The notes below the pieces were generated by a model that saw nothing but the letters and a program-made list of their open reading frames with translations, was not told the DNA's origin and did not search any database. Both the position numbers and the translations under genes were made by a program. Positions 7,359-42,720 of a DNA stretch of 64,000 nt are shown in pieces (positions within the stretch are counted from its first letter, which is position 1; each line of letters opens with the position of its first letter). Source of the stretch: Chloroflexota bacterium (GTDB lineage Bacteria; Chloroflexota; UBA11872; VXOZ01); NCBI GenBank assembly GCA_963663275.1, contig OY760183.1, positions 768,001-832,000 of the forward strand, read 5' to 3'.

Positions 7359-7494
7359 TGGTCGCTCACTCCAGTGTTGAGGCGTACGTCCTCTTGCTCT
7401 CAATGGAGACCTTTGCGTAACATGGTGACTTTTGCGCAACATAGGTCGGCTGCGTACCATAGGTCGGCGCGCGCTCAGACTCCCTCTCCCCCAG

Positions 7495-9792: not shown

Positions 9793-10160
9793 GTGGCGTG
9801 TTTGCTTTGCTGGCGCGGAGCGCGGCGGTTGCGCTCGCCGGCGCCCCTTCCTGGCGGCGGCAGCCCCGGGCGCGCGCCCCGGAGCCGTGCCGTCCGCCGC
9901 GCGTAGTCATGCTACCACACGAGAGTCGGCGTGTCAGAATGAAGCGCGGCCTACCCCGCCGCGCTGCTCCTACACTGCCAACCGCCTGGCAAATTCACCC
10001 AAAGGTCTCCCCCGGCGGCAGTAGGCGCAATGGCGCGTCACGAACGCCCGGGGTGAGCCAGCGCTTCCTTTAATTAAGAGAACAGCATTTAGAGTGGCGG
10101 CCGCATCTCGCCGCGCGTCCGCCGTTGGCCGCGGTGGGGGCCGTTATCCCCCGCGCGGGA

Positions 10161-10332
10161 CTGACAGGGGTAGGCATTCCACATCCGACTTCACGTGTCA
10201 TTCCGAGCGGAGCGCAGCGGAGAGTCGCTAAGAGCGCGGAATCTAAGGCTTTCGCTGCAAAGACATCGGTTCTAGATTCCGCGAACCCTGTTCGACGCTC
10301 CGCTCGGAATGACACTTGCCTACCCCTGGCAG
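10161..10332. mobile_element. MITE, CTGACAGGGGTAGGCA family
   Basis: TIRs (15/16), internal GTCATTCCGAGCGGAGC palindrome, CCCGCGCGGG on both flanks. Confidence 0.7.
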
Positions 10333-10376
10333 TCCCGCGCGGGGGCGGAGAGCGGGAGCGGATCGGATTCCCCCGA

Positions 10377-10453
10377 TTTTCTCCAGTTTTCTCGAATTTT
10401 CTCTGATTTTCGCCCTCAAATCCCTTGCACTATCTTTTCCTGCATGATATTTT
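10377..10453 (+). promoter_or_regulatory. Phased T-tracts plus sigma70-like promoter of adhesin cassette 1
   Basis: TTTT at 10377, 10387, 10397, 10407; TTGCAC (10425-10430), 17 nt, TATTTT (10448-10453). Confidence 0.65.
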
Positions 10454-10571
10454 GTCTAGTGAAAATAGTTGGGCTGTGAAACTAATTCATGATGGTACGA
10501 AAGCACATTAGAGTGAACAGTATCCGATGCGCTACAGTACAGCGCAAGCAACAGATGGGCAACAAGATTAT

Positions 10572-10919
10572 ATCGCGCATGGCCGAGAGGATCGGGACAC
10601 CGCTCCCGCCTCTCGCCTTGCCGTCCTCCATCCCCGCACGGGCTGCTCCGTCCTCTGGCCAGGACGGAGCGCCAGTGTTTGGCGGTTGGAGAACGGACGC
10701 GGCATCGAGCATGAGCATAGGCAAGGAAGCAGCCGGCGCTAGCCAGCCGGCTACAGAGGTGAGTCCGCGAGGCCACTTGATGACGGAGCGGACGTAAGCA
10801 GGAATGGCGGAGCGTTGCCGCGGAAAAGGACGGCACGCTCGCAGGTAGCGCCGCCAGCGCGCGCCGGCCGGAGAGCGCGGCAAGCCGAAGCGAAGCAGCA
10901 GATTGCGAGAGGGCTTGCC
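10572..10919 (+). ncRNA. Candidate structured cis-regulatory leader RNA, copy 1
   Basis: Homologous to 19182-19518 and 28954-29289; about five stems retained across copies with G-U and compensatory changes. Confidence 0.6.
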
Positions 10920-10996
10920 AGCGGGATTGCGGTCGAGAGCGAACGCGGCGGTAGGGGATAGAGTTCGGTAGTAGCAGGACAGCTATGGAGCGTGTC

Positions 10997-13900
10997 ATGA
11001 GCGGGACGGTTTCGGTAGGACGGCAGAACGCGCGCAAGCGCAATATCGGATGGCTGGCCTTGGCGCTGGCCCTGTTCACGGTAAGTTTTCTCATTTCTCC
11101 CATTGCCTCCGCGCAGGCGGCGGGCGTAAGCGGTTGGGCGGAGTCCGAGTCCGTCCAGACGCGACCGGAAGCGACCCCCACACCTAAGCCGGTTCCAACG
11201 CCAACGCCTGAACCGACAGCCACACCGACGCCGGAACCGACGGCCACACCGACGCCGGAACCCACGGCCACACCGACGCCGGAACCCACGGCCACACCGA
11301 CGCCGGAACCGACAGCGATACCGACGCCTGAACCAACGGCCACGCCGACCCCGGAACCGACAGCGATACCGACGCCGGAACCGACGCCTGAACCCACGGC
11401 CACACCGACCCCTGAGCCCACCGCAACGCCGACCCCTGAGCCGACTCCGGAACCCAAGGCGACCCCGACGCCTGTGCCGGCGCCGCAAGCGCCAAACGGC
11501 GTGAAAGCCACCCGGGGCAGCGGGACGCTGACGGTCAGTTGGAGCGCCGTAGATGGCGCGACCGGCTACAACGTCAATTGGACGGACGATAACAGGACTA
11601 GCTGGAACCGCGGCGCGAGCGACGTGAGCGGCACGAGCGTGACGCTCAAGAACGTGGACGATAGCAAAGACTACTACGTCTCCGTGCAGGCGGTGAACGC
11701 CGGCGGCGCCAGCGGCTGGACGGATTCCAGCCTCATACCGGCCGACCAGCCCTCCATCCAACCGACCGCGACACCGGCCCCGGCGGACCTCAGCTTCAGC
11801 GTCAACGACATTGCCGACCAGGACTACACCAAGGACGTCGCCTTCGTTACGCTGAACCTGCCTGAGGCCAGCGGCGGCAGCGGCGCGCTCACCTACAGCC
11901 TCTCCGGGACGCTGCCCGCGGGACTGAGCTTCGACGCCTCGGCGCGCACCATCAGCGGCACGCCTACGGAGGCCAAGGGCACGGTTGCCCTGACGTACAC
12001 GGCTACCGACGGCACGGACACCGCTTCCATCATGTTCAACCTGCGGGAGGCCTCGGAATACGCCCAGGCGGCGGCAAACCAAGCGCCCCAAACGATAGCC
12101 ACCACCCACAATACCCATCACCGGATATCGCCCTCGAGTGACCCCCCAGGCAGTGACAACGAGTGCTACCACAACCACGGGGTGTCGTACCCATCCGGCG
12201 AGAATAGCTATTTCAGTGACCCGGACGGCGACACGCTTACCATCACGTCGACCAGCTCGCATCCCGGGCTGGCAGCCATCACGCAGAACACCCCGGTCAG
12301 GATTCGCGCCAACCACCCCGCCGACACCTGGATAACCATAACCACCACGGCAACGGACCCCGGCGGCCTCTCCGCGAACTTCACCTGGCAGTACAAGATG
12401 ACCTGCACCACCGCCCTGTCGGTGAACGAGAACTCCGCCGCCGGCACCGACGTGGGCTCGGTGGGCAGAAAAGGTAATGGTAACGCCGCGGCCAGCAGCT
12501 ATACCATCGAAGGGGATGCCGCCAACGCTTTCACCATTAACAGCAGCAGCGGCCTGATCGAGGTGAAGTCCGGGGCGAGCCTGGACTACGAGACCAAGAC
12601 CAGCTACAGCGGCACGGTCAAGTACAAGGCATCCAAAACAGTGGATGGCACCAGCCACACCAACGATTCTGCCCGCAGCGTGACAATCAACATCAACAAC
12701 GTGGGCCCGCCGTCCATGAACGCGCCCACGGTGGCAGCGGACTCCTCAAATCCGACCGTCCAGCTGCTTGTGTCCTGGACGGCCCCGACCTCTACCCACC
12801 CCAACGGCATCACCGGCTACAATATACAGCACAGGCTGACCGGGGCCAGCAGTTGGACGAGCCTGAGTTTCAGCGGCACGGGAACCAGCAAGGAACTGAA
12901 CTGGCGCACCGCCGGCAAAAGCTACGACGTGCAGGTGCGGGCCATCGACGGCGAGGGCACCGGCGCCTGGTCCGCCTCCGGCACCGGCACCACCCAGTAC
13001 ACCACGCAGACGCGCGACATCGCCGAGAACTCGGCGGCGAACACCAACGTGGGCGCGGCAGTGGATGCCGATTCCAACCCCAACGGCTACACCCTGAGCT
13101 ACGCGCTGAGCGGAACCGACGCCAGCAGTTTCAACATCAACTCGTCCACCGGGCAAATCACGGTGAAGTCGGGAACCAACCTGGACTACGAAACCAAGTC
13201 GTCTTACAGCGTCATCGTCACCATGACGGCCTCCGGGGGCAGCGGCACCGGCACCGGCAGCACCGGCCTCAGCCCCAACGGGACGGGCGATTACGTCATC
13301 CCGGTAACCATCGACGTAACCGACGTGAACGAAACGCCCCAGTTTCCGACTGGCCCGCTAACCCGCAGCATCGCCGAAAACTCGGCGGCGGGCACCAACA
13401 TCGGCACGGCGGTTACCGCCAGCGCCGGCCAGGCCGCGTTGACCTACTCGCTTACGGGAACCAACGCCAGCGACTTCGACATCGTATCAACCACCGGACA
13501 AATACAAGTCAAGTCGGCCCTGAACTACGAATCCAAGACCTCGTACACCGTGACGGTGAACGTAACCGACGGCAAGGACAGCATGAACGATGACGACAAC
13601 AGCATCGACGACACCGTCACCGTAACCATCAACGTGACGGACGTGAACGAGCCGCCGGCCAAGCCGGCCGCGCCGTCGGTGTCGGTGAACAGCACGACGC
13701 CGACCAGCAAGCTGGACGCGAGTTGGACGGCGCCGGACATGACCGGCAAGCCGGCGATAACCGACTACGACGTGCAGTACCGGCAGGTGGGCGCTACTAA
13801 CTGGACGGACGCTTCGTTCACGGGCACGGGCACGAGCACGACCCTGAGCAGCCTGACCGCGAGCAAGAGCTACGAGGTGCAGGTGCGGGCCACGAACGAC

Positions 13901-16900
13901 GAAGGGACGAGCGCCTGGTCGGATTCGGGCACGGCGATCACCGACGGCAGCGCGGTGACCCGCAGCATCGCGGAGAATTCGCCGGCGGGGACGGCCGTAG
14001 GGGCCGCGGTAACGGCGAGTTCCAACCCGAACAGCTACACCTTGACGCACAGTCTGAGCGGAACGGACGCCGGCAGCTTTACGATCGAGAGCGGGACCGG
14101 GCAGATAAAGGTGAAGACGGGCACGAACCTGGACTACGAGACGAAGAAGAGCTACAGCGTGACGGTGACGGTGAAGGCGGCGGTGGCGCAGACCCAAGGC
14201 GCAAGCGAGTCGTCGGTGGCGCCCAACAATCCCGGCAATTACGTGATACCGGTGACGATCAACGTGACCGACGTGAACGAAAAGCCGGAGTTTACCGACG
14301 ACACGGCCACGCGGAGCATCGCCGAGAATTCGGCGGTAGGGACGAACGTGGGCGCGGTAGTGACGGCGAGCGACGTGGACGGCGACACGCTGGAGTATTC
14401 GCTGACGGGCACCGACGCCGGGAAGTTCGACATTGGGTCGGGCACGGGCCAGATCACGGTGAAGACGGGCTACGTGCCCGACTACGAGGCAAAGACCTCG
14501 TACAGCGTGACGGTGAACGTGAGCGACAAGAAGAACGCGAGCGGCACGGCGGACACGGTAATCGACGATACGATTGCGGTGACGATCAACGTGACGGACG
14601 TGAACGAGCCGCCGGCCAAGCCGGCCGCGCCGACGGTGACGATCCATTCCACCTCGCCCACGTCGAAGCTGGACGTAAGCTGGACGGCGCCGGACATGAC
14701 CGGCAAGCCGGCCATCAGCGACTACGACGTGCAGTACCGGCAGGTGGGCGCTGCTAGCTGGACGGACGCCTCGCACAGCGGAACGGGCACGAGCCTGACG
14801 TTGAGCAGCCTGACGGCGGGCAAGACCTACGAGGTGCAGGTGCGCGCCACGAATGATGAAGGGACGAGCCCCTGGTCGGATTCGGGCACGGCGATTACCG
14901 ACGGGAACGCGGTGAGCCGCAGCATCGCCGAGAACTCGGCGGCGGGCACGGCGGTAGGCGCGGCGGTAACGGCGACGTCCAATCCGAACAACTACACCTT
15001 GACGCACACGATGAGTGGGACGGACGCCGGGAAGTTCAGCATCGATAGCGGGACGGGTCAGATCAGCGTGGGTACGGGTACGACTCTGGACTACGAGACG
15101 AAGACGAGTTACAGCGTGACGGTGACGGTAGCGGCGGCGAGTAGCGGCGGCGGCGCCCAGGGCGCGTCGGTGTCGCCGAACAATCCCGGCAACTACGTGA
15201 TACCGGTGACGATCAATGTGACGGACGTGAATGAAGGGCCGGAGTTTTCCGACGACACGGCCACGCGGAGCATCGCCGAGAACTCGGCGGTGGGGACGAA
15301 CGTGGGCGCGGTAGTGACGGCGACCGACCCTGAGGGCGATACGATTACCTATTCGCTGACGGGAACCGACGCGGCCAAGTTCAGCATCGATAGCGCGACG
15401 GGCCAGATCAGCGTGGGCACGGGCACGACGCTGGACTACGAGAGCAAGACCTCGTACAGCGTGACGGTGAACGCGACCGATAAGAAGAAGGCGGACGGCA
15501 CGGCGGACACGGCGATCGACGACACGATCGCGGTGACGATCAACGTAACGGACGTGAACGAACCGCCGGCCAAGCCGGCCGCGCCGAGGGTGGCGGTCAA
15601 CGCCGCCTCTCCGGAAACGAAGCTGGACGTGAGTTGGACGGCGCCGACGATGACCGGCAAGCCGGCCATAACCGACTACGATGTGCAGTACCGGAAGCAC
15701 GGTGACGCGAACTGGACGGACGCCTCGTTCACAGGCGCGGGCACGAGCACGACGCTGACGGGCTTGACGTCCGGCAAGAGCTATGAGGTGCAGGTGCGGG
15801 CCACGAATGATGAAGGGACGAGCCCCTGGTCGGATTCTGGCACGGCGATTACCGACGCGAACGCGGTGAGCCGCAGTGTGCCGGAGAACTCTGCGGCGGG
15901 CACGAACGTGGGCGCGGCGGTAACGGCGAGTTCCAACCCGAACGGCTATACCCTGACGCACAGTTTGAGCGGCACGGACGCCGGCAAGTTCACGATTGAG
16001 AGCGGCAGCGGCCAGATAAAGGTAAAGACGGGCACGAACCTGGACTACGAGACGAAGAATTCGTACAGCGTGATCGTGACGATAGCGGCGGCCTCGGGCG
16101 GCGGCGCCCAGGGCGCGTCGGTGACGCCGAACAATCCGGGTAACTACGTGATCCCGGTGACGATCAACGTGACGGACGTGAATGAAGCGCCGGAGTTTAC
16201 CGACGACACGGCCACGCGGAGCATCGCCGAGAACTCGGCGGTGGGTACGAACGTGGGGGCCGTGGTGACGGCGAGCGACGTGGACGGCGATACGCTGGAG
16301 TATTCGCTGACGGGAACCGACGCGGCTAAGTTCGACATTGGGTCGGGCACGGGCCAGATCACGGTGAAGACGGGCTACGTGCCCGACTATGAGGCGAAGA
16401 CCTCGTACAGCGTGACGGTGAACGTGAGCGATAAGAAGAATGCGAGCGGCACGGCGGACACGGTGATCGACGACACGATCGCGGTGACGATCAACGTCAC
16501 GGACGTGAACGAGCCGCCGGGCAAGCCGGCCGCGCCGACGGTGACCATCCATTCCACCTCGCCGGAAACCAAGCTGGACGTGAGTTGGACGGCGCCGGAC
16601 ATGACGGGCAAGCCGGCGATCAGCGACTACGACGTGCAGTATCGGCAGGTGGGCGCTGCTAACTGGACGGACGCCTGGCACAGCGGGACGGGCACGAGCC
16701 TGACGCTGAGCGGCCTGACCGCGGGCAAGACCTACGAGGTGCAGGTGCGGGCCACGAACGATGAGGGCGCCGGGCCCTGGTCGGATTCGGGCTCGGCCAT
16801 AACCGACGGGGACGCGATCACGCGCAACATCGCCGAGAATTCACCGGCGGGTACGGCGGTAGGGGCGGCGGTGACGGCCAGTTCCAATCCGAACAACTAT

Positions 16901-18433
16901 ACCTTGACGCACACGATGAGCGGCACGGACGCCGGCAAGTTCAGCATCGATAGCGGGACGGGTCAGATAAGCGTGGGTACAGGGACGGTGCTGGACTACG
17001 AGACCAAGAATTCGTACAGCGTAATCGTGACGGTCGCGGCGGCGCAGAGCCAGAGCCAAGGCGCCCAGGGCGCATCGGTGTCGCCGAACAATCCCGGTAG
17101 TTACGTGATACCGGTGACGATCAACGTGACGGACGTGAACGAAAAGCCGGAATTTACGGATGGGACGTCAACCACGCGCAGCATCGCCGAGAACTCGCCG
17201 GTAGGGACGAACGTGGGCGCGGCGGTGGCCGCTACGGACGTAGACGGCGACACGCTGACCTATTCGCTGGCGGGGACGGACGCGGACTCGTTTACAATCG
17301 TAGCGTCCACCGGCCAGATACAGGTGAAGGACGTTCCCGACTACGAGGCGAAGACCTCGTACAGCGTGACGGTAGGCGTGAGCGACGGCAAGGACTCTCA
17401 AGGCAACGCGGACACGGCGATCGACGCGACGATTGCGGTGACGATCAACGTGACGGACGTGGATGAGCCGCCGGACGCGCCGGACGCGCCGGCGGTGTCG
17501 GGGCACGACACGTCGCCGAGGAGGAAGCTGAACGTGAAGTGGAAAGCGCCGGACATGACGGGCAAGCCGCCGATCACCGACTACGACGTGCGGTACCGCA
17601 TAGAGAACTCCGGCACGTGGATGGACGCGTCGTTCAGCGGGACGGGCACGAGCACGACGCTGACCGGCCTGTCCGAGGACACCACGTATGAGGTGCAGGT
17701 GAAGGCCTGGAACGACGAGGGCGAGAGCGGATGGTCGACGATGGGCCGGGGCAGGACGGATCTGTATGTAGCGCCGAACGTGCAAGCAACGCCGACGCCG
17801 GTGCTAGACCCCTCGGCGCCGCACGTGCCGGGGCCGAATTCCCCCGTCGTCTTGGGCAAGAGCGCGTGCGCGACAGCCTATGACTTTGGGAAGACGATGC
17901 ACGTGGACCGGCACGACGGCGGAGCGGACCTGGACATCGAGATAGGCTCCATCTCGGCCGACGGCAGCAAGATTGTGGTGGCGGGCTTCATCCGGGACGG
18001 CGACCTGGGTCAGACCTATAGCGTGGTGCGCTACGAGGCCGACGGCCGCGTGGTGCGGGTGTGGGTGGATCCGGACGACCCGTTGATCCGTGAAATCCCC
18101 TGGGCAGAGGTGAACACGAAGTACACGGTGCCGGTCTGCGTGGTGGTGTCGATACCGCTGGACGACCAGTTCCCGGCTCTGGGGCAGATGGTGCGGCGCT
18201 TCGACGGCCAGGACGACCGCATCTTCCGCCACGTGGGCAACCTGGTGTGGCGTCACATACCGGACGAAGGCACGTTCCAGTCGCTGGGGTACTACTGGTG
18301 CAACGTGACGGCGGCCAATGCGGGCTACTTCAAGAATATCAACATTGGCGAGCCGCTCCCCAGCAGCGGGACGGCGCCGCAGGGCGACTACCCAAGTTGT
18401 TGGGTCTGGGGAGAGGAGCCTCGCTCCAGGTAA
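10997..18433 (+). CDS. Giant secreted surface protein 1: signal peptide, PT repeats, FN3, putative Ig, repeated cadherin-cadherin-FN3 units, conserved C-terminal domain
   Basis: Sec signal ending ASA-Q; cadherin motifs AENS, LDYE, VTDVNE; FN3 motifs VSWTAP, YDVQYR, YEVQVRA; GGAG SD 6 nt before ATG 10997 (ORF track starts at 10985). Confidence 0.88.
11164..11478 (+). repeat. PTATPTPE coding tandem repeat (mostly 24-bp units)
   Basis: About a dozen imperfect PEPTATPT units. Confidence 0.85.
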
Positions 18434-18513
18434 CGCCGGGCCGCCGGACGTAGGGTGACGGCGTCCGCACAGAAGAAGAGGTTGGCCGACGGCGTACGTA
18501 GAGAAGAAGCGAT

Positions 18514-18555
18514 GAGGCCGTCCCGCGGAGACACATCCGCGGGACGGCCTCTCTT
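18514..18555 (+). terminator. Terminator-like hairpin after adhesin 1
   Basis: GAGGCCGTCCCGCGGA / TCCGCGGGACGGCCTC 16-bp stem followed by TCTT; homolog after gene 2. Confidence 0.65.
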
Positions 18556-18688
18556 CGCGTGCCGCACTCCCCCCCCCCCCCCCATGCCGCCGCGCCCCTG
18601 AACCCCCTCGCGTAATCTCCCCCTCACCCTAACCCTCTCCCCCAGGGAGAGGGGACAGGAGGCGCTCCTTTAACTCCCTCTCCCCCAG

Positions 18689-18834
18689 CTGACAGGGGTA
18701 GGCAAGTGTCATTCCGAGCGGAGCGAGGAATCTAGGACCGACGTTTTTGCAGCGAAAGCCTTAGATTCCTCTCTCCGCTGCGCTCCGCTCGGAATGACAC
18801 GTGAAGTCGGATGTAGAATGCCTACCCCTGTCAG
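18689..18834. mobile_element. MITE, CTGACAGGGGTAGGCA family, inserted in a REP cluster
   Basis: Perfect 16-bp TIRs; flanking direct repeat CTCTCCCCCAG. Confidence 0.75.
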
Positions 18835-18977
18835 CTCTCCCCCAGGGAGAGGGGACAGGAGGCACTCCTTTTACTCCCTCTCCCCCAGGGAGAGGGGACA
18901 GGAGGCGCTCCTTTTACTCCCTCTCCCCCAGGGAGAGGGCCGGGGTGAGGGGGGCGCGCAGGGTGGGATATACCCAA

Positions 18978-19063
18978 TTTTCTCGGTTTTTCCAGGTTTT
19001 CTCGGATTTTCTCCCATTTTCTTGCCAAAACCGCTTGCACTGCTTTTGTGCGTTGTGTATTAT
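18978..19063 (+). promoter_or_regulatory. Phased T-tracts plus sigma70-like promoter of adhesin cassette 2
   Basis: Five T-tracts at ~10-bp period ending at 19020; TTGCAC (19035-19040), 17 nt, TATTAT (19058-19063). Confidence 0.7.
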
Positions 19064-19181
19064 CTGTGTATGTCATTAGATGCAAACGCAACTGATGAAG
19101 GACGGTAGGACAGCACATAGTATGAACCAGTATCCTGTTGCGCTCACTGTGTGTGAAAAGGCACAGGAACAAGCGGACTGT

Positions 19182-19518
19182 ATCGCGCATGGCCGAGAGG
19201 TTCGGGGGACGCCCCCGCCTTTCGCCGTGCCGTCCTCCATCCCCGCACAGGCTGCTCCGTCCTCGACCCAGGGCGGAGCGCCGGTGTTTACCGGATGGAG
19301 CGCAGCCGCCAAGCGGGTCACTAGTAGTGTAGCAGGCGCTAGCCGGCCGGCTACAGCGGAGGCAAGCAGAAAAATGGAGGAAGCAGCCAAGTAGGTCTTA
19401 GCCTGAGTGGAGCCGGCGCGGGACGCCAGCACGCTTACAGGCAACGCCGCCAGCGCGCGCCGACCGGCAACGCGGCAAGCCGGAGAGAGTAGCCAGAGTT
19501 TTGACGGAGAGGGTTTGC
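19182..19518 (+). ncRNA. Candidate structured cis-regulatory leader RNA, copy 2
   Basis: Same conserved blocks and stems as copies 1 and 3. Confidence 0.6.
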
Positions 19519-19596
19519 GGCAGGGTTGCGGTCGGGAACGGGCGCTGCGGTCAGGGGACAGAGTTCGGTGACGGCAGGAAAGCTTTGGAGCGTGTC

Positions 19597-22500
19597 ATGA
19601 GCGGGACGGTTTCTCGTTACTCGTTAGCACGGCAGAACGCGCGGAAGCGCAGTATCGGGTGGCTGGCCTTGGCGCTGGCCCTGTTCGCGGTAAGTTTCCT
19701 CATTTCCCCCATCGCCTCCGCGCAGGCGGCGAGCGTCAGCGGTTGGGCGGAGTCCGAGTCCGTCCAGGCGCAATCGGATCCGACCCCCACGCCCGAACCC
19801 ACCGCAACCCCGACCCCGGCGCCCCTCGCCTTCAACGTCACCGGCATTAGCGACCAGCAGTACATGAAGGGCGTTTCCTTCGGTACGTTGAACTTGCCGG
19901 CGGCCACCGGCGGCAGCGGTTCGCTCACCTACAGCCTGTCCGGCACGCTGCCCGCGGGCCTGACTTTCAGCGCCTCGGCGCGCACCATCAGCGGCACGCC
20001 CACGGAGTCCAGGGGCACAGTCTCCCTGGCGTACGCGGCTACCGACGGCACGGACACCGCTTTCATCAGGTTCAGCCTGCTGGAGGCGATGGAACAAAAG
20101 ACCCCCACCCCGGTTCCGGTCCCGCCAGCGCCCGGCGGCGTCAGCGCGATCCGCGGCACTGGCACGTTGACCGTCAGTTGGAACGCCGCCGCGGGCGCGA
20201 CCGGCTACAACGTTAATTGGACGGACGATCACAAGTCCAGTTGGAAGCGCGGCGCCAGCAACGAGAGTGGCACGAGCGTAACGCTCAGCGACATCGACGA
20301 CAGCAAAGACTACTATGTGGCCGTGCAGGCCGTGAACGGCAGCGGCGCCAGCGGCTGGACGGACTCCGGCCTCATCAAGGCCGCGCCGCAACCCACGCCC
20401 ACGCCGAAGCCGGTGCCGACGGCGACCCCCACACCGGTTCCGGCCCCGCCAGCGCCCAGCGGCGTCAGCGCCAGCCGCGGCGTCGGCACGCTCAACGTCA
20501 GTTGGAACGCGGCGGCCGGCGCGACCGGCTACAACGTCAATTGGACGGACGACGGCAAGGCCAGTTGGAACCGCGGCGCGAGCAACGTCAGCGGCACGAG
20601 CGTGACGCTCAACAACATCGACGCCACCAAAGACTACTACGTCTCCGTGCAGGCGGTGAACGCCGGCGGCGCCAGCGGCTGGACGGATTCCAGCCTCATA
20701 ACGGCCGGGCAGCCCTCGCTCCAAGCGACCCCGACCCCGGCGGACCTCAGCTTCAGCGTCAACGACATTGCCGACCGGAACTACACCAGCGGCGTCGCCT
20801 TCGGTACGTTGAACCTGCCTGAGGCCACCGGCGGCAGCGGTTCGCTCACCTACAGCCTCTCCGGGACGCTGCCCGCGGGCCTCAGCTTCGATTCGTCGGC
20901 GCGCACCATCAGCGGCACGCCCACGGAAGGCAAGGGCACGGTCGCCCTGACGTACCAGGTTACCGACGGCACGGACACCGCTTCCATCAAGTTCAACCTG
21001 CTGGAGGCCCAGGAAGAAGCCCGGGCGCAGAACAACCAAGCGCCCGAAACGATAGCCAGCACCCACGATACCCATCACCAGATAAACCCCTCGAGCGACC
21101 CCCCAGGCGGTGACAACCAGTGCTACCACAACCACGGGGTGTCGTACCCATCCGGCGAGAGTAGCTATTTCAGTGACCCGGACGGCGACACGCTTACCAT
21201 CACGTCGACCAGCTCGCATCCCGCGCTGGCAGCCATCACGCAGGTCACCCCGGTCAGGATTCGCGCCAACCATCCCGCCGACACCTGGGTGACCATAACC
21301 ACCACGGCAACGGACCCCGGCGGCCTCTCCGCGAACTTCACCTGGAAGTACAAGATGACCTGCACCACCGCCCTGTCGGTGAACGAGAACAGCGCCGCCG
21401 GCACCGACGTGGGCTCGGTGGGCAGAAAAGGGAATTCTAACGCCGCGGCCAGCCAATATACCATCGAAGGGGACGCCGCCAACGCTTTCACCATTAACAG
21501 CAGCAGCGGCCTGATCGAGGTGAAGTCCGGGGCCAGCCTGGACTACGAGACCAAGAGCAGCTACAGCGGCACGGTCAAGTACAAGGCATCCAAGACAGTG
21601 GATGGCACCAGCTACACCAACGATTCTGCCCGCAGCGTGACAATCAACATCAATAACGTAGGCGGGCCTTCGGCGAACACGCCCACGGTGACCCGGGACG
21701 CCACCACGCCGACCACCAAGCTGGACGTGTCCTGGACTGCATCGACGTCCACGCACGCCAACGGCGTCACCGACTACGACGTGCAATACCGGCTGACCGG
21801 GGCCAGCAGTTGGACCAGCAAGTCCCACACCGGAACGACCACCAGCACGGAGCTTACGGGCCTCACCGCGGGCAAGAGCTACGAGGTGCAGGTGCGGGCC
21901 ACCGACGGCGAAGGCACCGGCTCCTGGTCATCCTCCGGCACGGCCATCACCCAATACACCACGCAGACCCGCAGCATCGCCGAAAACTCGACCGGCAATG
22001 TTGGCGCGGCGGTGGACGCCGATTCCAACCCCAAAGGCTACACCCTGTCCTACTCCCTGGGCGGAACCGACGCCAGCAGCTTCGACATCAGCTCCTCCAC
22101 CGGCCAAATCACGGTGGCAACGGGAACCACGCTGGACTACGAAACCAAGAAGTCCTACAGCGTCACCGTGACCATGGCGGTGTCCGGAACGACCAGTGTC
22201 ACCGGCACCGGCAACACCGGCCTCAGCCCCAACGGGACGGGCAACTACCTCATCCCGGTGACCATCAACATAACCGACGTGAACGAAACGCCCCAGTTCC
22301 CGAAGGACACGGACACCCGCAGCATCGCCGAAAACTCGGCGGCGGGCACCAACATCGGCGCGGCGGTTACCGCCAGCGCCGGCCAGGCCGCGTTGACCTA
22401 CTCGCTTACGGGAACCAACGCCAGCGACTTCGACATCGTATCAACCAGCGGACAAATACGAGTCAAGTCGGCCCTGAACTACGAATCCAAGACCTCGTAC

Positions 22501-25500
22501 AGCGTGACGGTGAACGTAACCGACGGCAAGGACAGCAGCAACAATGACGACAGCAGCATCGACGACACCATCACCGTAACCATCAACGTGACGGACGTGA
22601 ACGAGCCGCCGGCCAAGCCGGCCGCACCGACGGTGTCGGCCAACAGCACGACGCCGACGAGCAAGCTGGACGTAAGCTGGACGGCGCCGACGATGACCGG
22701 CAAGCCGGCCATAACCGACTACGACGTGCAGTACCGCAAGCACGGCGAGTCCTCGTGGACGGACGCCTCCTTCACGGGCACGGGCACGAGCACGACCCTG
22801 AGCAGCCTGACCGCGAGCAAGAGCTACGAGGTGCAGGTGCGCGCCACGAACGACGAAGGGACGAGCGACTGGTCGGATTCGGGCACGGCGATCACCGACG
22901 GGAACGCGGTGACCCGCAGCATTGCCGAGAACTCGGCGGCGGGCACGGCGGTAGGGGCCGCGGTGACCGCCAGTTCCAACCCGAACGACTACACCCTGAC
23001 GCACAGTCTGGGCGGGACGGACGCCGGCAAGTTCACGATCGAGAGCGGCAGCGGCCAGATAAAGGTGAAGACGGGCACGAACCTGGACTACGAGACGAAG
23101 ACCAGTTACAGCGTGACGGTGACGGTCGCGGCGGCGGTGGCGCAGAGCGAAGGCGCTAACAGTCAATCGGTGTCGCCGAACAACCCCGGCAACTACGTGA
23201 TACCGGTGACGATCAACGTAACCGACGTGAACGAAGCGCCGGAGTTTACCGGCAGCACGGCCACGCGGAGCATCGCCGAGAACTCGGCGGTAGGGACCAA
23301 CGTGGGCGCGGCGGTGACGGCGACCGACGTGGACGGCGATACGCTGGAGTATTCGCTGACGGGCACCGACGCGGGTAAGTTCGACATCAGCTCGAGCACG
23401 GGCCAGATCACGGTAAAGACGGGCCACGTGCCCAACTACGAAGCCAAGACCTCGTACAGCGTGACGGTGAACGTGAGCGACAAGAAGAACGCGAGCGGCA
23501 CGGCGGACACGGCGATCGACGACACGATTGCGGTGACGATCAACGTGACGGACGTGGACGAGCCGCCGGATGCGCCGGCCGCGCCGACGGTGTCGGCCAA
23601 CAGCACAACGCCGACCAGCAAGCTGGACGTAAGCTGGACCGCGCCGACGATGACCGGCAAGCCGGCAATCAGCGACTACGACGTGCAGTACCGCAAGCAC
23701 GGAGATTCGTCATGGACGGACGCCTCGTTCACGGGCACGGGCACGAGCACCACGCTGACGGGTCTGACCGCGGGCAAGAGCTACGAGGTGCAGGTGCGGG
23801 CCACGAACGATGAAGGCACGAGCGCTTGGTCGGATTCGGGCACGGCCATTACCGACGGCAGCGGCGTGACCCGCAGCATCGCCGAGAATTCGGCGGCGGG
23901 CACGGCGGTAGGCGCGGCGGTGACGGCCAGTTCCAACCCGAACGACTACACGCTGACGCACAGTCTGAGCGGAACGGACGCCGGCAAGTTCACGATTGAG
24001 AGCGGCAGCGGCCAGATTAAGGTGAAGACCGGCACGAACCTGGACTACGAGACGAAGAAGAGCTACAGCGTGACGGTGACGGTGGCGGCGACGGTGGCGC
24101 AAAGCGAAGGCGCTAACAGTCAGTCGGTCGCGCCGAACAACCCCGGCAGTTACGTGATACCGGTGACGATCAACGTGACCGACGTGAACGAGAAGCCGGA
24201 ACTCTCGGATGGGACGTCGGCGACGCGCAGCATCGCCGAGAACTCGGCGGTGGGGACGAACGTGGGCGCGGCGGTGGCCGCGACCGACCAGGACGGCGAT
24301 ACGCTGACCTATTCGCTGACGGGTACCGACGCGGGTAAGTTCGACATCAGCTCGAGCACGGGCCAGATCACGGTGAAGACGGGGCACGTGCCCAACTATG
24401 AAGCCAAGACCTCGTACAGCGTGACGGTGAACGTGACCGATAAGAAGAAGCCGGACGGCACGGCGGACACGGCAATCGACGATACGATTGCGGTGACGAT
24501 CAACGTGACGGACGTCGATGAGCCGCCGGATGCGCCGGCCGCGCCGACGGTGTCGGCCAACAGCACAACGCCGACCAGCAAGCTGGACGTAAGCTGGACG
24601 GCGCCGACGATGACCGGCAAGCCGGCGATCAGCGACTACGACGTGCAGTACCGCAAGCACGGGGATTCCTCCTGGACGGACGCCTCGTTCACGGGCACGG
24701 GCACCAGCACGACGCTGACGGGCCTGACCGCGGGCAAGAGCTACGAGGTGCAGGTGCGGGCCACGAACGATGAAGGCACGAGCGCCTGGTCGGATTCGGG
24801 CACGGCCATTACCGAAGGCAGTGGGGTGACCCGCAGCATCGCCGAGAACTCGGCGGCGGGCACTGCGGTAGGCGCGGCGGTGACGGCGTCGTCGAACCCG
24901 AATAGCTACACCTTGACCCACAGTTTGAGCGGCACGGACGCCGGCAGCTTTACGATCGACAGCGGCAGCGGCCAGATAAAGGTGAAGACCGGGACGAACC
25001 TGGACTACGAGACGAAGAAGAGCTACAGCGTGACGGTGACGGTGGCGGCGTCGGTGGCGCAGAGCGAAGGCGCTAACAGTCAGTCGGTCGCGCCGAACAA
25101 TCCCGGCAACTACATGATCCCGGTGACGATCAACGTGACCGACGTGAACGAGAAGCCGGAACTGACGGACGGGACGTCGGCCACGCGGAGCATCGCCGAG
25201 AACTCGGCGGTGGGCACGAACGTGGGCGCGGCGGTGGCCGCGACCGACCAGGACGGCGATACGCTGACCTATTCGCTGACCGGTACCGACGCGGCGAAGT
25301 TCGACATCAGCTCGACCACGGGCCAGATCACGGTGAAGACGGGCCACGTGCCCAATTACGAGGCCAAGACCTCGTACAGCGTGACGGTGAACGTGACCGA
25401 TAAGAAGAAGCCCGACGGCACGGCGGACACGGCGATCGACGACACGATCGCGGTGACGATCAACGTGACGGACGTGAATGAGCCGCCGGCGGCCCCGGAC

Positions 25501-28428
25501 GCGCCGACGGTGACGATCCATGCCACCTCGCCGGAAACGAAGCTCGACGTAAGCTGGACGGCGCCGGACATGACGGGCAAACCGGCCATCAGCGACTACG
25601 ACGTGCAGTACCGGAAGCATGGCGATTCCTCCTGGTCGGACGCCTCGTTCACGGGCACGGGCACGAGCACGACGTTGACGGGCCTGACCGCGGGCAAGAG
25701 CTACGAGGTGCAGGTGCGCGCCACGAACAACGAAGGCACCGGCCCTTGGTCGGCTTCGGGTTCGGCGATCACCGACGGAAACGCGGTGAGCCGCAGTGTG
25801 CCGGAGAACTCCGCGGCGGGCACGAACGTGGGCGCGGCGGTGACGGCCAGTTCCAATCCGAACAACTACACCTTGACGCACACGATGAGCGGCACGGACG
25901 CCGGCAAATTCACGATTGACAGCGGCACCGGCCAAATCAAGGTGAAGAGCGGCACGAACTTGGACTACGAGACGAAGAACAGCTACAGCGTGACGGTGAC
26001 GGTGAAGGCGGCGGTGGCGCAGACCCAAGGCGCAAAAAAGCAGTCGGTGGCGCCGAACAATCCCGGCAACTACGTGATCCCGGTGACGATCAAGGTGACC
26101 GACGTGAACGAGAAGCCGGAACTGTCGGAGGGGACGTCGGCGACGCGGAGCATCGCCGAGAACTCGCCGGTAGGGACGAACGTGGGCGCGGCGGTGACGG
26201 CAACCGACGTTGACGGCGATACGCTGACCTATTCGCTGACGGGCACCGACGCTGGGAAGTTCGACATCGGGTCGGGCACGGGCCAGATCACGGTGAAGAC
26301 GGGCCACGTGCCCAACTATGAAGCCAAGACTTCGTACAGCGTGACGGTGAACGTGACCGATAAGAAGAAACCCGACGGCACGGCGGACACGGCAATCGAC
26401 GACACGATCGCGGTGACGATCAACGTGACGGACGTGAACGAGCCGCCGCCGCAATTGGCCGCGCCGACGGTGACGACGAATGCCGCCTCGCCGACGGGCA
26501 AGCTGGACGTGAGTTGGGCAGCGCCGACGACCCAGCAGATGGCCGGCAAGCCGGCCGTGAACGACTACGACGTGCGCTACCGGAAACACGGCGACGCCAA
26601 CTGGACGGACGCCTCGTTCAGCGGCACGGGCACGAGCACTACCCTGGTAGGTGTGACGGCCAGCAAGAGCTATGAGGTGCAGGTGCGCGCCGGAAACGTG
26701 GAAGGAGAGGGCGCTTGGTCGCCTTCGGGCTCGGCCATAACCGACGGGGACGCGGTCACGCGCAGCATCGCCGAGAATTCGCCGGCGGGCACGGCGGTAG
26801 GCGCGGCGGTGACGGCCAGTTCCAACCCGAACAACTACACCTTGACGCACTCGTTGAGCGGAACGGACGCCGGGAAGTTCAGCATCGATAGCGGGACGGG
26901 TCAGATAAAGGTAGGGACGGGCACGTCGCTGGACTACGAGACGAAGACAAGCTACAGCGTAGTCGTGACGATAGCGGCGGCGAGTAGCGGCGGCGGAGCA
27001 TCGGCTAATTCGGTGGCGCCGAACAATCCCGGCAACTACGTGGTGCCGGTGACGATCAGAGTGACGGACGTGAATGAAATATCGGAGTTCACGGACGGGA
27101 CCACGGCCACGCGGAGCATAGTGGAGAACGCGTCGGTGGGGACGAACGTGGGCGCGGTAGTGACGGCGACGGACGTTGACGGCGATACGCTGACGTATTC
27201 GCTGCTGGGGACGGACGCGGACTCGTTCACCATCGTAGCGTCCACTGGGCAGATAAAGGTGAAGGCGGGCCACGTGCCCGACTACGAGACGAAGAATTCG
27301 TACAGTCTGTCGGTAGGCGCGAGCGACGGCAAGGACGCTAACGACAATCCGGATAACGCGGTGGACACCACGATACCGGTGAAGATCACGGTGACGGACG
27401 TCGATGAGCCGCCGGACGCGCCGGCCGCGCCGACGGTGACGACCAATGCGACGACGCCGACGAGCAAGTTGGACGTGAGTTGGACGGCGCCGGACACGAC
27501 CGGGAAGACGGCGATACACGACTACGACGTGCGCTACCGTGCGGATGGCGCTTCCGGCTGGACGGACGCATCGTTCAGCGGGACGGGCACGAGCACGACG
27601 CTGACCGGGCTGGACGCGGGCACCACGTATGCGGTGCAGGTGAGGGCCCGGAACTACGAGGGCGTAAGCGGCTGGTCGCCCTCGGGTAAAGGCAAGACGG
27701 ATCAGTCCAAGAATAAGGCCCCTCGGCAATTGCTGCCGCTGACGCCGACTCCGACGCCGTCGCTAGACCCATCGACGCCGCTATTGCAGGCGACGCCGGT
27801 GCTAGACCCCTCGGCGCCGCGCGTGCCGGGACCGACTACCCCCATCTTCTTGGGCAAGAGCGCGTGCGCGTCGGCCTATGACTTTGGGAAGACGATGCAC
27901 CTGGATCGACACGACGGCGGGGCTGACCTGGATATCGAGATTGGCTCGATCTCGGCCGACGGCAGCATAGAGGTAAAGGGCTTCATCCGGGACAGCGACC
28001 TGGGCCAGACCTATAGCATCGTGCGCTACGAGGCCGATGGCCGCGTGGTGCGGGTGTGGGTGGATCCGGACGACCCGTTGATCCATGAAATCCCCTGGGA
28101 AGAGGTGAACACGAAGTTCACGGTGCCGGTCTGCGTGGTGGTGGCGATCCCGCTGGACGACCAGTTCCCGGCTGTGGGGCAAATGGTGAGGCGGTTCGAC
28201 GGCCAGGACGACCGGATCTTCCGGCACGTGGGCAACCTGGTGTGGCGTCACATACCGGACGAAGGCACATTCCAGTCGCTGGGTTACCACTGGTGCAACG
28301 TGACAGCGGCCAACGCGGGCTACTTCGACCAGATCAACATCGGCGAGCCGCTTCCCAGCAGCGGGACGGCGCCGAAGGACGACTACCCAAGTTGTTGGGT
28401 CTGGGGAGAGGAGCCTCGCTCCCGGTAA
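19597..28428 (+). CDS. Giant secreted surface protein 2 (Ig/FN3/cadherin repeats, conserved C-terminal domain)
   Basis: Paralog of gene 1 with a near-identical signal peptide and one more ~320-aa repeat unit; GGAG SD before ATG 19597 (ORF track starts at 19501). Confidence 0.88.
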   Translation: MSGTVSRYSLARQNARKRSIGWLALALALFAVSFLISPIASAQAASVSGWAESESVQAQSDPTPTPEPTATPTPAPLAFNVTGISDQQYMKGVSFGTLNLPAATGGSGSLTYSLSGTLPAGLTFSASARTISGTPTESRGTVSLAYAATDGTDTAFIRFSLLEAMEQKTPTPVPVPPAPGGVSAIRGTGTLTVSWNAAAGATGYNVNWTDDHKSSWKRGASNESGTSVTLSDIDDSKDYYVAVQAVNGSGASGWTDSGLIKAAPQPTPTPKPVPTATPTPVPAPPAPSGVSASRGVGTLNVSWNAAAGATGYNVNWTDDGKASWNRGASNVSGTSVTLNNIDATKDYYVSVQAVNAGGASGWTDSSLITAGQPSLQATPTPADLSFSVNDIADRNYTSGVAFGTLNLPEATGGSGSLTYSLSGTLPAGLSFDSSARTISGTPTEGKGTVALTYQVTDGTDTASIKFNLLEAQEEARAQNNQAPETIASTHDTHHQINPSSDPPGGDNQCYHNHGVSYPSGESSYFSDPDGDTLTITSTSSHPALAAITQVTPVRIRANHPADTWVTITTTATDPGGLSANFTWKYKMTCTTALSVNENSAAGTDVGSVGRKGNSNAAASQYTIEGDAANAFTINSSSGLIEVKSGASLDYETKSSYSGTVKYKASKTVDGTSYTNDSARSVTININNVGGPSANTPTVTRDATTPTTKLDVSWTASTSTHANGVTDYDVQYRLTGASSWTSKSHTGTTTSTELTGLTAGKSYEVQVRATDGEGTGSWSSSGTAITQYTTQTRSIAENSTGNVGAAVDADSNPKGYTLSYSLGGTDASSFDISSSTGQITVATGTTLDYETKKSYSVTVTMAVSGTTSVTGTGNTGLSPNGTGNYLIPVTINITDVNETPQFPKDTDTRSIAENSAAGTNIGAAVTASAGQAALTYSLTGTNASDFDIVSTSGQIRVKSALNYESKTSYSVTVNVTDGKDSSNNDDSSIDDTITVTINVTDVNEPPAKPAAPTVSANSTTPTSKLDVSWTAPTMTGKPAITDYDVQYRKHGESSWTDASFTGTGTSTTLSSLTASKSYEVQVRATNDEGTSDWSDSGTAITDGNAVTRSIAENSAAGTAVGAAVTASSNPNDYTLTHSLGGTDAGKFTIESGSGQIKVKTGTNLDYETKTSYSVTVTVAAAVAQSEGANSQSVSPNNPGNYVIPVTINVTDVNEAPEFTGSTATRSIAENSAVGTNVGAAVTATDVDGDTLEYSLTGTDAGKFDISSSTGQITVKTGHVPNYEAKTSYSVTVNVSDKKNASGTADTAIDDTIAVTINVTDVDEPPDAPAAPTVSANSTTPTSKLDVSWTAPTMTGKPAISDYDVQYRKHGDSSWTDASFTGTGTSTTLTGLTAGKSYEVQVRATNDEGTSAWSDSGTAITDGSGVTRSIAENSAAGTAVGAAVTASSNPNDYTLTHSLSGTDAGKFTIESGSGQIKVKTGTNLDYETKKSYSVTVTVAATVAQSEGANSQSVAPNNPGSYVIPVTINVTDVNEKPELSDGTSATRSIAENSAVGTNVGAAVAATDQDGDTLTYSLTGTDAGKFDISSSTGQITVKTGHVPNYEAKTSYSVTVNVTDKKKPDGTADTAIDDTIAVTINVTDVDEPPDAPAAPTVSANSTTPTSKLDVSWTAPTMTGKPAISDYDVQYRKHGDSSWTDASFTGTGTSTTLTGLTAGKSYEVQVRATNDEGTSAWSDSGTAITEGSGVTRSIAENSAAGTAVGAAVTASSNPNSYTLTHSLSGTDAGSFTIDSGSGQIKVKTGTNLDYETKKSYSVTVTVAASVAQSEGANSQSVAPNNPGNYMIPVTINVTDVNEKPELTDGTSATRSIAENSAVGTNVGAAVAATDQDGDTLTYSLTGTDAAKFDISSTTGQITVKTGHVPNYEAKTSYSVTVNVTDKKKPDGTADTAIDDTIAVTINVTDVNEPPAAPDAPTVTIHATSPETKLDVSWTAPDMTGKPAISDYDVQYRKHGDSSWSDASFTGTGTSTTLTGLTAGKSYEVQVRATNNEGTGPWSASGSAITDGNAVSRSVPENSAAGTNVGAAVTASSNPNNYTLTHTMSGTDAGKFTIDSGTGQIKVKSGTNLDYETKNSYSVTVTVKAAVAQTQGAKKQSVAPNNPGNYVIPVTIKVTDVNEKPELSEGTSATRSIAENSPVGTNVGAAVTATDVDGDTLTYSLTGTDAGKFDIGSGTGQITVKTGHVPNYEAKTSYSVTVNVTDKKKPDGTADTAIDDTIAVTINVTDVNEPPPQLAAPTVTTNAASPTGKLDVSWAAPTTQQMAGKPAVNDYDVRYRKHGDANWTDASFSGTGTSTTLVGVTASKSYEVQVRAGNVEGEGAWSPSGSAITDGDAVTRSIAENSPAGTAVGAAVTASSNPNNYTLTHSLSGTDAGKFSIDSGTGQIKVGTGTSLDYETKTSYSVVVTIAAASSGGGASANSVAPNNPGNYVVPVTIRVTDVNEISEFTDGTTATRSIVENASVGTNVGAVVTATDVDGDTLTYSLLGTDADSFTIVASTGQIKVKAGHVPDYETKNSYSLSVGASDGKDANDNPDNAVDTTIPVKITVTDVDEPPDAPAAPTVTTNATTPTSKLDVSWTAPDTTGKTAIHDYDVRYRADGASGWTDASFSGTGTSTTLTGLDAGTTYAVQVRARNYEGVSGWSPSGKGKTDQSKNKAPRQLLPLTPTPTPSLDPSTPLLQATPVLDPSAPRVPGPTTPIFLGKSACASAYDFGKTMHLDRHDGGADLDIEIGSISADGSIEVKGFIRDSDLGQTYSIVRYEADGRVVRVWVDPDDPLIHEIPWEEVNTKFTVPVCVVVAIPLDDQFPAVGQMVRRFDGQDDRIFRHVGNLVWRHIPDEGTFQSLGYHWCNVTAANAGYFDQINIGEPLPSSGTAPKDDYPSCWVWGEEPRSR

Positions 28429-28476
28429 CGCCGGGCCGCTTGAGGTAGGGCTTTCGGCGTAAGCAGAGACAAAGTG

Positions 28477-28520
28477 GAGAGGCCGTCCCGCGGAGTGAAA
28501 TCCGCGGGGCGGCCTCTCTG
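28477..28520 (+). terminator. Terminator-like hairpin after adhesin 2
   Basis: GAGAGGCCGTCCCGCGGA / TCCGCGGGGCGGCCTCTC stem; weak U-tract. Confidence 0.6.
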
Positions 28521-28769
28521 CGCGTGCCCGGTTCCAACGGCGAAAACCCGGAAGCCACACCCCCGCGATGCAGGCTTGGCGGCAGTTTCTCGCGCTCCGG
28601 CGGGGGACAAGCCCCCGCGCTACGTTAACGCGACAGCATTGGGGACAAGCCCCCGGGCTACGCTAATGCGACGGCATGGGGGTGAGGTGGGAGAATGAGA
28701 CTCCCTCTCCCTGGGGAGAGGGCCGGGGTGAGGGGGGAGAGCAGGGGGAGATACCCGGAACTTCCCCGG

Positions 28770-28835
28770 TTTTTTCCGGTTTCTCCTATTTTACCCCCAG
28801 AATCGCTTGCGCCGTTTAGATGCGTCGTGTATTAT
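28770..28835 (+). promoter_or_regulatory. T-tracts plus sigma70-like promoter of adhesin cassette 3
   Basis: T-tracts ending at 28792; TTGCGC (28807-28812), 17 nt, TATTAT (28830-28835). Confidence 0.65.
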
Positions 28836-28953
28836 CTGTCTGTAACATTAGAGGCATACACAACGAATGTAGGATGATAGCAGATAGCATCAGATGAATC
28901 GGAATTATGTCTTGCACAGTGTATTGGGAACGTCACACAAGCAAGCGGAATTC

Positions 28954-29289
28954 ATCGCGCATGGCCGAGAGGTACGGGGGGCGCTCCCGCCTCTCGTCCT
29001 GCCGTCCTCCATCCCCGCACAGGCTGCTCCGTCCCTTGGCCGGGACGGAGCGCCAGTGTTCGCCGGGTGGAGGGCAGCGCAGATGGGCGTGAGCAGTAGC
29101 GTAGCGGGCGTTCGCCGGCCGGCTACAGCGGATGTAGTGAGCGAAACGGAGGGCGCGGAGATTTAGGTTCATTCTGAGCGAGGCCGTTCACCAAAAGCGG
29201 CACGCTCACAGGTAGCGCCGCCAGCGCGCGGCCGCCGGAGAACGTGGCAAGCCAGAGACCGAGTGAGGAGTTTGTCGAGAGCGCTTGCC
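28954..29289 (+). ncRNA. Candidate structured cis-regulatory leader RNA, copy 3
   Basis: Same conserved blocks and stems, although the downstream signal peptide has diverged. Confidence 0.6.
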
Positions 29290-29364
29290 GATGGGTTTCG
29301 GCGCGATTGTGCGCAGCGGTCGGGATGAGGGATCGGTTTTTCTAGCAATGCTATGGAGCGTGTC

Positions 29365-36243
<6,879 letters not shown>

Positions 36244-40049: not shown

Positions 40050-40116
40050 AGGGTAAGACCTCGATTGTCCGCTGTTTGCGGTATCCTTGAAGTGTGGTTC
40101 AATGAAGGGGAGTGTC

Positions 40117-42674: not shown

Positions 42675-42720
42675 CAAGTAAGCACTGGATTGCTATCGAT
42701 CCACTTGTCGGAGTAGGAAC

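Follow-up and report, generated by a model that had tools for sequence, protein, structure and literature searches.

Among the described systems that come closest to the element reported here, the eps-associated RNA (EAR) of Bacillales acts by processive antitermination beside a long surface and biofilm gene cluster, cyclic di-GMP (c-di-GMP) riboswitches occur upstream of adhesin and pilus genes, mgtA- and corA-type leaders are Rho-dependent attenuators, and the long leader of pgaABCD is controlled by CsrA. A further group, the Shine-Dalgarno (SD)-sequestering riboregulators, includes translational riboswitch platforms and RNA thermometers. We analyzed a 64,000-nt stretch of a Chloroflexota genome (G000:C1:768001-832000, hereafter the window; G000 denotes this genome) that holds three tandem plus-strand open reading frames (ORFs) of 2482, 2975 and 2296 aa, whose products are composed of cadherin, FN3 and Ig-like repeats. 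Each of these giant adhesin genes is preceded by a long conserved region, which, judged from sequence, is a credible candidate for an unrecognised sequence family of a familiar kind, the structured cis-acting 5′ leader. The part of the literature reached by full-text searching contains no description of such a leader. Coordinates of all features are given in Table 1.

We found seven copies of the leader, every one directly 5′ of an FN3/cadherin giant gene: four (own1 to own4) before the four such paralogs of this genome and three (G011a, G011b and G011c) before syntenic genes of G011, one sister species of the same genus. The original prediction had described three conserved upstream regions with a core of about 340 nt. 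All three are present where it placed them, with a mean column identity of 78% over 841 alignment columns, but they are not the only copies, and the conservation is wider than the core: in all seven copies it spans from 10-nt phased T-tracts and a promoter-like element (10425-10453 in copy 1) to the start codon (10997). The T-tracts have the same arrangement in copy 2 (about 18977-19025) and likewise in the G011 copies. The fourth copy of this genome lies outside the window (G000:C1:938565-938984), before the fourth FN3/cadherin gene (1918 aa), and is 84% identical to copy 1. In G011b (L031:16186-16650) the entire 5′ domain (P1-P3 and the C-rich linker) is missing, the promoter and the 3′ domain are kept, and the 2954-aa frame is open; starting with the anti-SD block, G011b and G011a share an identical 3′ half, pointing to a recent gene conversion. 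In the third G011 adhesin gene (L032:6451-7500), the frame that begins at the ATG of leader G011c ends after about 350 aa and a frame of 2865-2924 aa resumes from about 7430, reflecting either a frameshift or stop in the gene or an assembly error.

The leader is conserved in blocks. Own1 and own3 share 64% identity in the leader, whereas the upstream region and the first 450 nt of the coding sequence (CDS) each reach 50%, and distant or old paralog pairs in general conserve the leader above both flanks. Within the 3′ domain, 87 of 209 columns are invariant; they cluster (permutation p about 1e-4) into runs that are 15, 8 and 14 nt long, and the loops and linkers between these runs do diverge, as had been said, being saturated or of differing length. 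This block-wise conservation holds across at least three old paralog lineages and two species. The caution that recent duplication could account for part of it applies to own1/own4 and G011a/G011b. In the older pairs the leader exceeds its flanks, and orthology is kept: own3 groups with G011c (CDS 78% identical), and the leaders were therefore not simply homogenised within the genome. No reading frame is conserved across the copies. A 1-nt indel in the P1 loop throws the one recurrent open frame out of register, and this frame starts and ends differently in each copy and occupies different frames in own1 and own2 over their aligned 5′ part; the conserved blocks are invariant at all three codon positions; given the indel shift, the differing ends and the lack of third-position variation, we rejected an upstream ORF or leader peptide.

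To gauge the RNA structure we used two measures, namely the share of alignment cells that pair compared with controls in which the partner strand was slid, and the number of base pairs with double-sided changes compared with 500 shuffles; the full-leader consensus fold was built from the six full-length leaders. Over the whole leader, 91.9% of cells pair (36-46% in slid controls), and 12 pairs carry double-sided changes, against 4.8 ± 1.6 in the shuffles (none of the 500 reaching 12) and 2-8 in the slid controls. These 12 fall in P3 (three), H1 (two), Pa (one), Pb (four) and Pc (one), the rest being in one small hairpin. For the 3′ domain taken alone, with seven copies and four helices, 94.8% of cells pair compared with 28-44% when slid, and for the 5′ domain, with six copies, the corresponding values are 92.7% and 42-51%. 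The clearest case is Pb, where C-G is exchanged with U-A, G-C with C-G, G-C with A-U and again C-G with U-A; the extended H1 helix has two pairs with double-sided changes, P3 two to three, and P1 none, its changes being of the G-U kind only. Pairing of Pc is undercounted because own1 is misaligned there by one column. As a set, the local helices P1, P3, H1 and Pa-Pb-Pc are kept with compensatory changes. Over the 110 nt that follow the promoter, the copies are similar in sequence, but the consensus has no shared fold there.

Most of the stems drawn in the original prediction are recovered by these alignments. P1, P4, the invariant block and P5 (Pc here) were all located in the sequence, and the exchange described in P3 is real: GCTCCGTCCT/AGGACGGAGC in copy 1 becomes GCTCCGTCCC/GGGACGGAGC in copy 3, with a U-G pair in copy 2. 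The evidence for P4 is weak because its arms are built from the self-complementary motif GCCGGC. P2 fared less well: it is intact in all four G000 copies but not in G011a or G011c, and the energy of its duplex, formed by the C-rich linker with the P2 3′ strand, does not beat that obtained with shuffled targets. The linker can also be paired with the conserved G-rich tail block upstream of the start codon (92% of cells, no double-sided change), and here too shuffled targets do equally well, so that we rejected a specific pairing of the linker with either partner.

The plus strand, which is that of the adhesin mRNAs, is favoured by an excess of G-U over A-C cells (16:3, 22:3 and 25:8) and by the consensus energies (-50.9 and -50.3 for the plus strand; -45.9 and -42.8 for the minus strand). 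These observations bear on the possibility that the conserved region is a DNA-level or historical signal, that is, a shared 5′ cassette of a tandemly duplicated family that binds a protein close to the promoter, serves as a recombination substrate or has simply not decayed, in which the helices are incidental. In keeping with this, the copies all belong, as paralogs or orthologs, to a single family, a few of them arose recently (84% identity; identical 3′ halves), the motifs are GC-rich and self-complementary (GCCGGC, GCGCGC), the minus strand too folds better than shuffles (z -4.9), and the 110 nt after the promoter are conserved without a shared fold. We nevertheless consider it rather unlikely, given block-wise conservation that exceeds both flanks in old pairs with saturated loops and linkers between the blocks, double-sided changes concentrated in helices (12 as opposed to 4.8), the G-U excess and the better plus-strand consensus energy. 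An invertible-promoter switch, one form such a signal could take, was rejected, as no consistent inverted repeats were found beside the promoter in the three window copies.

We tentatively propose that the conserved region may be an approximately 535-nt 5′ leader of each giant adhesin mRNA, a folded RNA that would act in cis by controlling access to the translation initiation site. In copy 1, transcription would start near 10460, from a TTGCAC-17-TATTTT element preceded by the phased T-tracts, and the leader would then set the accessibility of the ribosome-binding region. The block GGCACGCUC (10832-10840) could pair in hairpin H1 with GAGCG..GCC, a stretch farther upstream that mimics the ribosome-binding site, and leave the SD free; alternatively, it could pair with GAGCGUGUC (10988-10996), by which the Pa-Pb-Pc rod would be closed and initiation occluded. 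A second clamp, acting on the start-codon region and the G-rich tail, may come from the 5′ domain. Possible triggers of the shift would be a ligand, a protein, temperature or co-transcriptional folding. We are less confident of the exact anti-SD/SD pairing, which is a model, than of control of initiation-site access as such.

Several findings argue for this arrangement. The start of gene 1 is likely the second ATG (10997), which has an invariant GGAG 6 nt before it, and the 14 invariant nt around the start (TGGAGCGTGTCATG) exceed what a ribosome-binding site alone needs. The 3′ arm of H1 is itself the proposed anti-SD block (GGCACGCTC, 10832-10840), to which GAGCGTGTC (10988-10996) is complementary: nine pairs could form, one of them G-U, and they would involve the last three bases of the SD and the whole spacer. 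Both alternative helices have 98.4% of cells paired over the seven copies, and three single-sided substitutions within the block leave both pairings intact. Own1, own3 and G011c have the SD-occluding form as their minimum-energy fold, the remaining four copies have the H1 form, and the constrained energies of the two states differ by 0.1-8.0 kcal/mol. In six of the seven copies the anti-SD/SD helix is the longest that the leader could form with the translation-start region, always in the same place. The leader therefore has the conserved anti-SD and the mutually exclusive alternative pairing of an SD-sequestering riboregulator, and it is like such systems in having a block complementary to the SD and spacer, a competing upstream mimic and near-isoenergetic folds; as modelled, the arrangement looks like the expression platform of a translational riboregulator. 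It differs from them in that it matches no known aptamer or thermometer family, in that the anti-SD lies 165 nt upstream across a 100-nt rod, and in that its pairing is without statistical support in single sequences.

A number of points weigh against this reading. For six copies, 120-259 of 300 dinucleotide shuffles contain a 9-bp helix between the start region and the 515-nt leader, and for G011b, in which the longest helix measures 11 bp, the figure is 30 of 300; since such helices are common in shuffles, the anti-SD pairing rests on its position and invariance and not on statistics. Double-sided changes are absent from the cores of both alternative helices. In the full-length consensus fold, the start region and tail are instead taken up by two different long-range helices, neither with covariation: one joins CGC.CAUGGC in the 5′ flank of P1 to GUCAUG.GCG at the start codon, and the other is that between the C-rich linker and the G-rich tail. 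The alignments in which pairs were counted are also those that yielded the structures, and they comprise seven copies from two sister species; because the copies are few and some are recent duplicates (own1/own4; the 3′ halves of G011a/G011b), the number of independent events is small. The 5′ domain by itself has no significant covariation, its two double-change pairs being reached by 156 of 500 shuffles, and the gene behind G011b is intact although that whole domain is missing. Single-sequence folding z-scores are significant on both strands (plus -3.1, minus -4.9) and do not separate them, for which reason we dropped them as a strand test. A consensus promoter scan did not call the plus-strand site, because TTGCAC agrees with TTGACA at only three of six positions, and the copy-1 transcription start is therefore one that we infer. 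Common to all of the pairing schemes is a complementarity between conserved blocks farther upstream and the conserved 60 nt that surround the start, and for this reason we chose a reading in terms of initiation-site access.

The C-rich linker is open to a different explanation, namely that the leader acts on transcription elongation, either through Rho loading at a C-rich island that P1, P2 and P3 would mask or expose, or through an EAR-like resistance to termination in the 7-9 kb genes. The genome encodes Rho, the genes are very long, and 535 nt of untranslated RNA would be exposed to Rho. The linker is moreover the centre of the leader's only C-rich, G-poor island: the 60-nt window richest in C (C 30-33, G 11-14) is one and the same conserved segment in all six copies with a 5′ domain, and G prevails in the final 300 nt (about 120 G and about 75 C). 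In these respects (a long untranslated leader, one maskable C-rich, G-poor island, and Rho) it resembles the mgtA- and corA-type attenuators, but the intact copy G011b lacks the island. With EAR it shares being a structured RNA tied to long surface or biofilm genes; it differs in phylum, in being 4-5 times larger, and in matching no EAR model (E up to 10 for copy 1 and up to 1 for copies 2 and 3), EAR being, we take it, one of the Rfam 15 families. A scan of the leaders found no intrinsic-terminator-like sites that could be read through. The genome has a single NusG-family gene (G000:C1:861238-861555) and therefore no RfaH/LoaP-type partner, so that control by a NusG paralog is not supported. 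Because action on elongation would also leave the invariance of the SD-AUG stretch and of its complement unexplained, we regard it as improbable.

Control of initiation-site access, as we propose it, would need a signal, and one way to supply it is a true riboswitch, in which the Pa-Pb-Pc rod binds a small molecule or second messenger and drives the anti-SD switch. Control by second messengers is typical of surface adhesins. Pa contains an invariant stretch of 15 nt (CGCCGCCAGCGCGCG, 10849-10863) next to the covarying Pb, which suggests sequence-specific recognition, and the invariant Pa strands together with the conserved purine-rich junctions form a candidate recognition site; the expression platform is bistable in the predicted folds. 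This invariance is equally compatible with protein binding, however, and no multi-helix junction or pseudoknot is backed by covariation. The leader is like the c-di-GMP riboswitches in being a cis-acting leader of large surface adhesins, but the c-di-GMP-I and c-di-GMP-II models of Rfam do not match it even at permissive E-values, nor does any other riboswitch model, and its presence in 2 of 98 genomes of the class, before one paralog family, is unlike that of metabolite riboswitches. We thus give a true riboswitch only a slim chance. A broader version, in which an approximately 0.5-kb sensory leader has a rod that binds a ligand or protein and toggles mimic, anti-SD and SD, a 5′ domain that clamps the start codon and tail, and one signal that co-ordinates the four giant, eukaryote-like adhesins of a host-associated Chloroflexota lineage post-transcriptionally, is in our view quite unlikely in that full form. 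A further alternative is a constitutive 5′ untranslated region (UTR) that, with no switching, would stabilise the long mRNA against 5′-end-dependent decay or keep translation of a costly secreted protein permanently low. The structure is stable and conserved, and the translation start is partly occluded in three of the seven minimum-energy folds; but stabilisers are usually short hairpins at the 5′ end, where these leaders have 110 nt without a shared fold, and the mimic/anti-SD/SD triplet is more than a static structure requires. We accordingly give it little probability. Finally, pgaABCD is alike in having a long leader before surface or biofilm genes and a repeated GGA-containing motif with one occurrence at the SD, but in the window GGAGCG is not enriched (92 observed, 84.6 expected) and only two sites are conserved. 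Control by CsrA was excluded, as PF02599 finds no CsrA in this 99.6%-complete genome (controls positive).

The leader has a narrow distribution. It had been stated that the leaders match no known riboswitch, and the proposed check against Rfam 15 (4227 models, family membership requiring a score at or above the gathering threshold) bears this out for every family: the whole window yields two tRNAs and nothing else, and permissive searches of 10300-11100 (E up to 10) and of 18400-29450 (E up to 1) leave all three leaders without a match. We built covariance models of the 3′ half (R1) and the 5′ half (R2). Among 17 genomes of the genus, R1 gives seven matches at 178-202 bits, the next best reaching 21.7 bits (E 0.028), and R2 gives six matches on the leaders at 83-146 bits; the copies thus score far higher than chance would give. 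The suggested covariance-model search of Chloroflexota, carried out on 98 genomes of the class, recovered the known copies but no others, each model matching two genomes. No leader beyond the four and three already described was added by blastn in 41 relatives, and a search of the genus with the adhesin N-terminus found close homologues only in the two species. A pattern scan of 185,579 species genomes returned 31 loci, of which three are real, all on one contig of a Chloroflexota metagenome-assembled genome and not adding to the seven, and the same scan of JGI metagenome contigs returned 91 loci, none of them real, the chance matches being confined to the pattern. We conclude that the leader is a lineage-specific element of one paralog family and not a widespread RNA class. 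The original prediction of a new cis-regulatory RNA is in part supported, by the Rfam result, the block-wise conservation, the compensatory changes, the plus-strand signal and the absence of a frame, but it must be read as applying to seven related copies in 2 of 98 genomes of the class.

In metagenome runs we observed related pieces. Contig pieces from a sponge-metagenome run span most of leader 1 with 0-28 differences, and a coral-metagenome run contains a 151-nt piece with zero differences at 10971-11121, which hints that the organism or close relatives are host-associated. Variant pieces of about 91% identity in runs X2 and X3 may be further alleles. As paralogs pile up on copy 1 and no transcript start, end or strand can be derived from such contigs, they were left out of the covariation counts.

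Table 1. Window coordinates of the leader copies, their structural elements and the giant adhesin genes.
Feature	Coordinates	Strand	Remarks
10-nt phased T-tract repeats (ATTTTCTCCA x3.6), directly 5′ of the -35 element	10376..10411	+	Tandem Repeats Finder
Promoter-like element, copy 1: TTGCAC, 17-nt spacer, TG-extended TATTTT	10425..10453	+	predicted; conserved in 7/7 copies
Promoter-like element, copy 2	TTGCAC 19035-19040, TATTAT 19058-19063	+	
Promoter-like element, copy 3	TTGCGC 28807-28812, TATTAT 28830-28835	+	
Copy-1 leader, predicted 5′ UTR of ~536 nt	10461..10996	+	multiple alignments
P1 hairpin	10577..10621	+	86-97% of cells paired; tip sequence and length vary
C-rich linker (CCGTCCTCCATCCCCGCAC)	10621..10639	+	invariant in 6/6 copies having the 5′ domain
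P3, 17-pair hairpin GCAC.GGC.GCTCCGTCCT / AGGACGGAGC.GCC.GTGT	10636..10678	+	98% of cells paired
P2 3′ strand, partner 10622-10633	10684..10695	+	kept in 4 G000 copies
P4 hairpin AGCCGGC ... GCCGGCT, in variable-length linker	10731..10752	+	83% of cells paired
H1 hairpin GAGCG..GCCG / CGGC.CGCTC	10810..10840	+	98.4% of cells paired, 7 copies
Pa-Pb-Pc, long irregular hairpin	10849..10952	+	
Pa	10850-10863 with 10940-10952	+	invariant in 3′-domain alignment
Pb	10865-10870 with 10930-10935	+	double-sided changes in 4/6 pairs
Pc	10879-10886 with 10912-10919	+	
Conserved G-rich tail block (GGGGATAGAGTTCGG)	10954..10968	+	consensus fold pairs it with the C-rich linker
Start region: SD GGAG 10987-10990, 6-nt spacer, ATG 10997-10999	10987..10999	+	14-nt invariant run
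Giant gene 1 (cadherin, FN3, Ig-like repeats)	10997..18433	+	
Copy 2, promoter-like element and leader	19035..19596	+	5′ domain 19178-19304, 3′ domain 19396-19596
Giant gene 2	19597..28428	+	
Copy 3, promoter-like element and leader	28807..29364	+	5′ domain 28950-29076, 3′ domain 29167-29364
Giant gene 3	29365..36243	+	

The three giant genes are each their own separate unit, and gene 1 is followed, in order, by a GC-rich hairpin, a C-tract, dispersed repeats and an AT-rich promoter-like region. The C-tract is a run of 15 C at 18569-18583, between the hairpin and the dispersed repeats 5′ of gene 2 and outside the promoter spacer; the C-run in the equivalent region of G011b is shorter, and its length could be variable among strains. 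A palindromic element of about 190 nt at 10140-10350 (arms 10148-10176/10317-10345 and 10192-10214/10296-10318) is a dispersed repeat, of which the genome contains 40 copies or more (77-97% identical). It is found shortly 5′ of the promoters of adhesin copies 1, 2 (at 18689-18834) and 4, and looks like a miniature inverted-repeat transposable element (MITE) or a repetitive extragenic palindromic (REP) element, distinct from the leader. Short palindromic units (…CTCTCCCCCAGGGAGAGGGGACAGGAGGCGCTCC…) are repeated around it at 18636-18680 and 18836-18940 and give weak microRNA-like hairpin noise in the permissive Rfam search. The neighbours in the window comprise a SulP permease, an alpha-2-macroglobulin, two GNAT acetyltransferases and an EF-G paralog, with no obvious regulator among them. 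The bacterial alpha-2-macroglobulin gene (1414 aa; 3216-7460, minus strand) lies shortly 5′ of the adhesin array, and G011 shares the gene order of a large minus-strand ORF, a permease-sized ORF and adhesins. What looks like an islet of restriction/modification or defence genes occupies 40087-43410: a 539-aa fusion of a Vsr endonuclease with a C-5 cytosine methyltransferase, and after it a DUF4928 protein and a dual-OB (DuOB) protein. A gene for a 524-aa protein that has Cache sensor domains and weakly matches a winged helix (L211:7422-8996, minus strand; G000:C1:944921-946495) is convergent to the fourth adhesin gene and is the only sensor- or regulator-like gene noted beside any leader copy.

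Giant cadherin/FN3 proteins are thought to attach uncultured symbionts to their hosts, and to our knowledge nothing is known about how they are regulated. The leader described here is at present an orphan candidate RNA motif confined to two uncultured species, and its wider significance is limited by its narrow distribution, with 2 of 98 genomes of the class and no matches in the metagenome pattern scan. It does offer a defined RNA for probing, with a 3′ domain of about 170 nt. In summary, a dedicated leader has been kept before every paralog of this family since before the two species split, which argues that these costly 7-9 kb genes are controlled after transcription has started.

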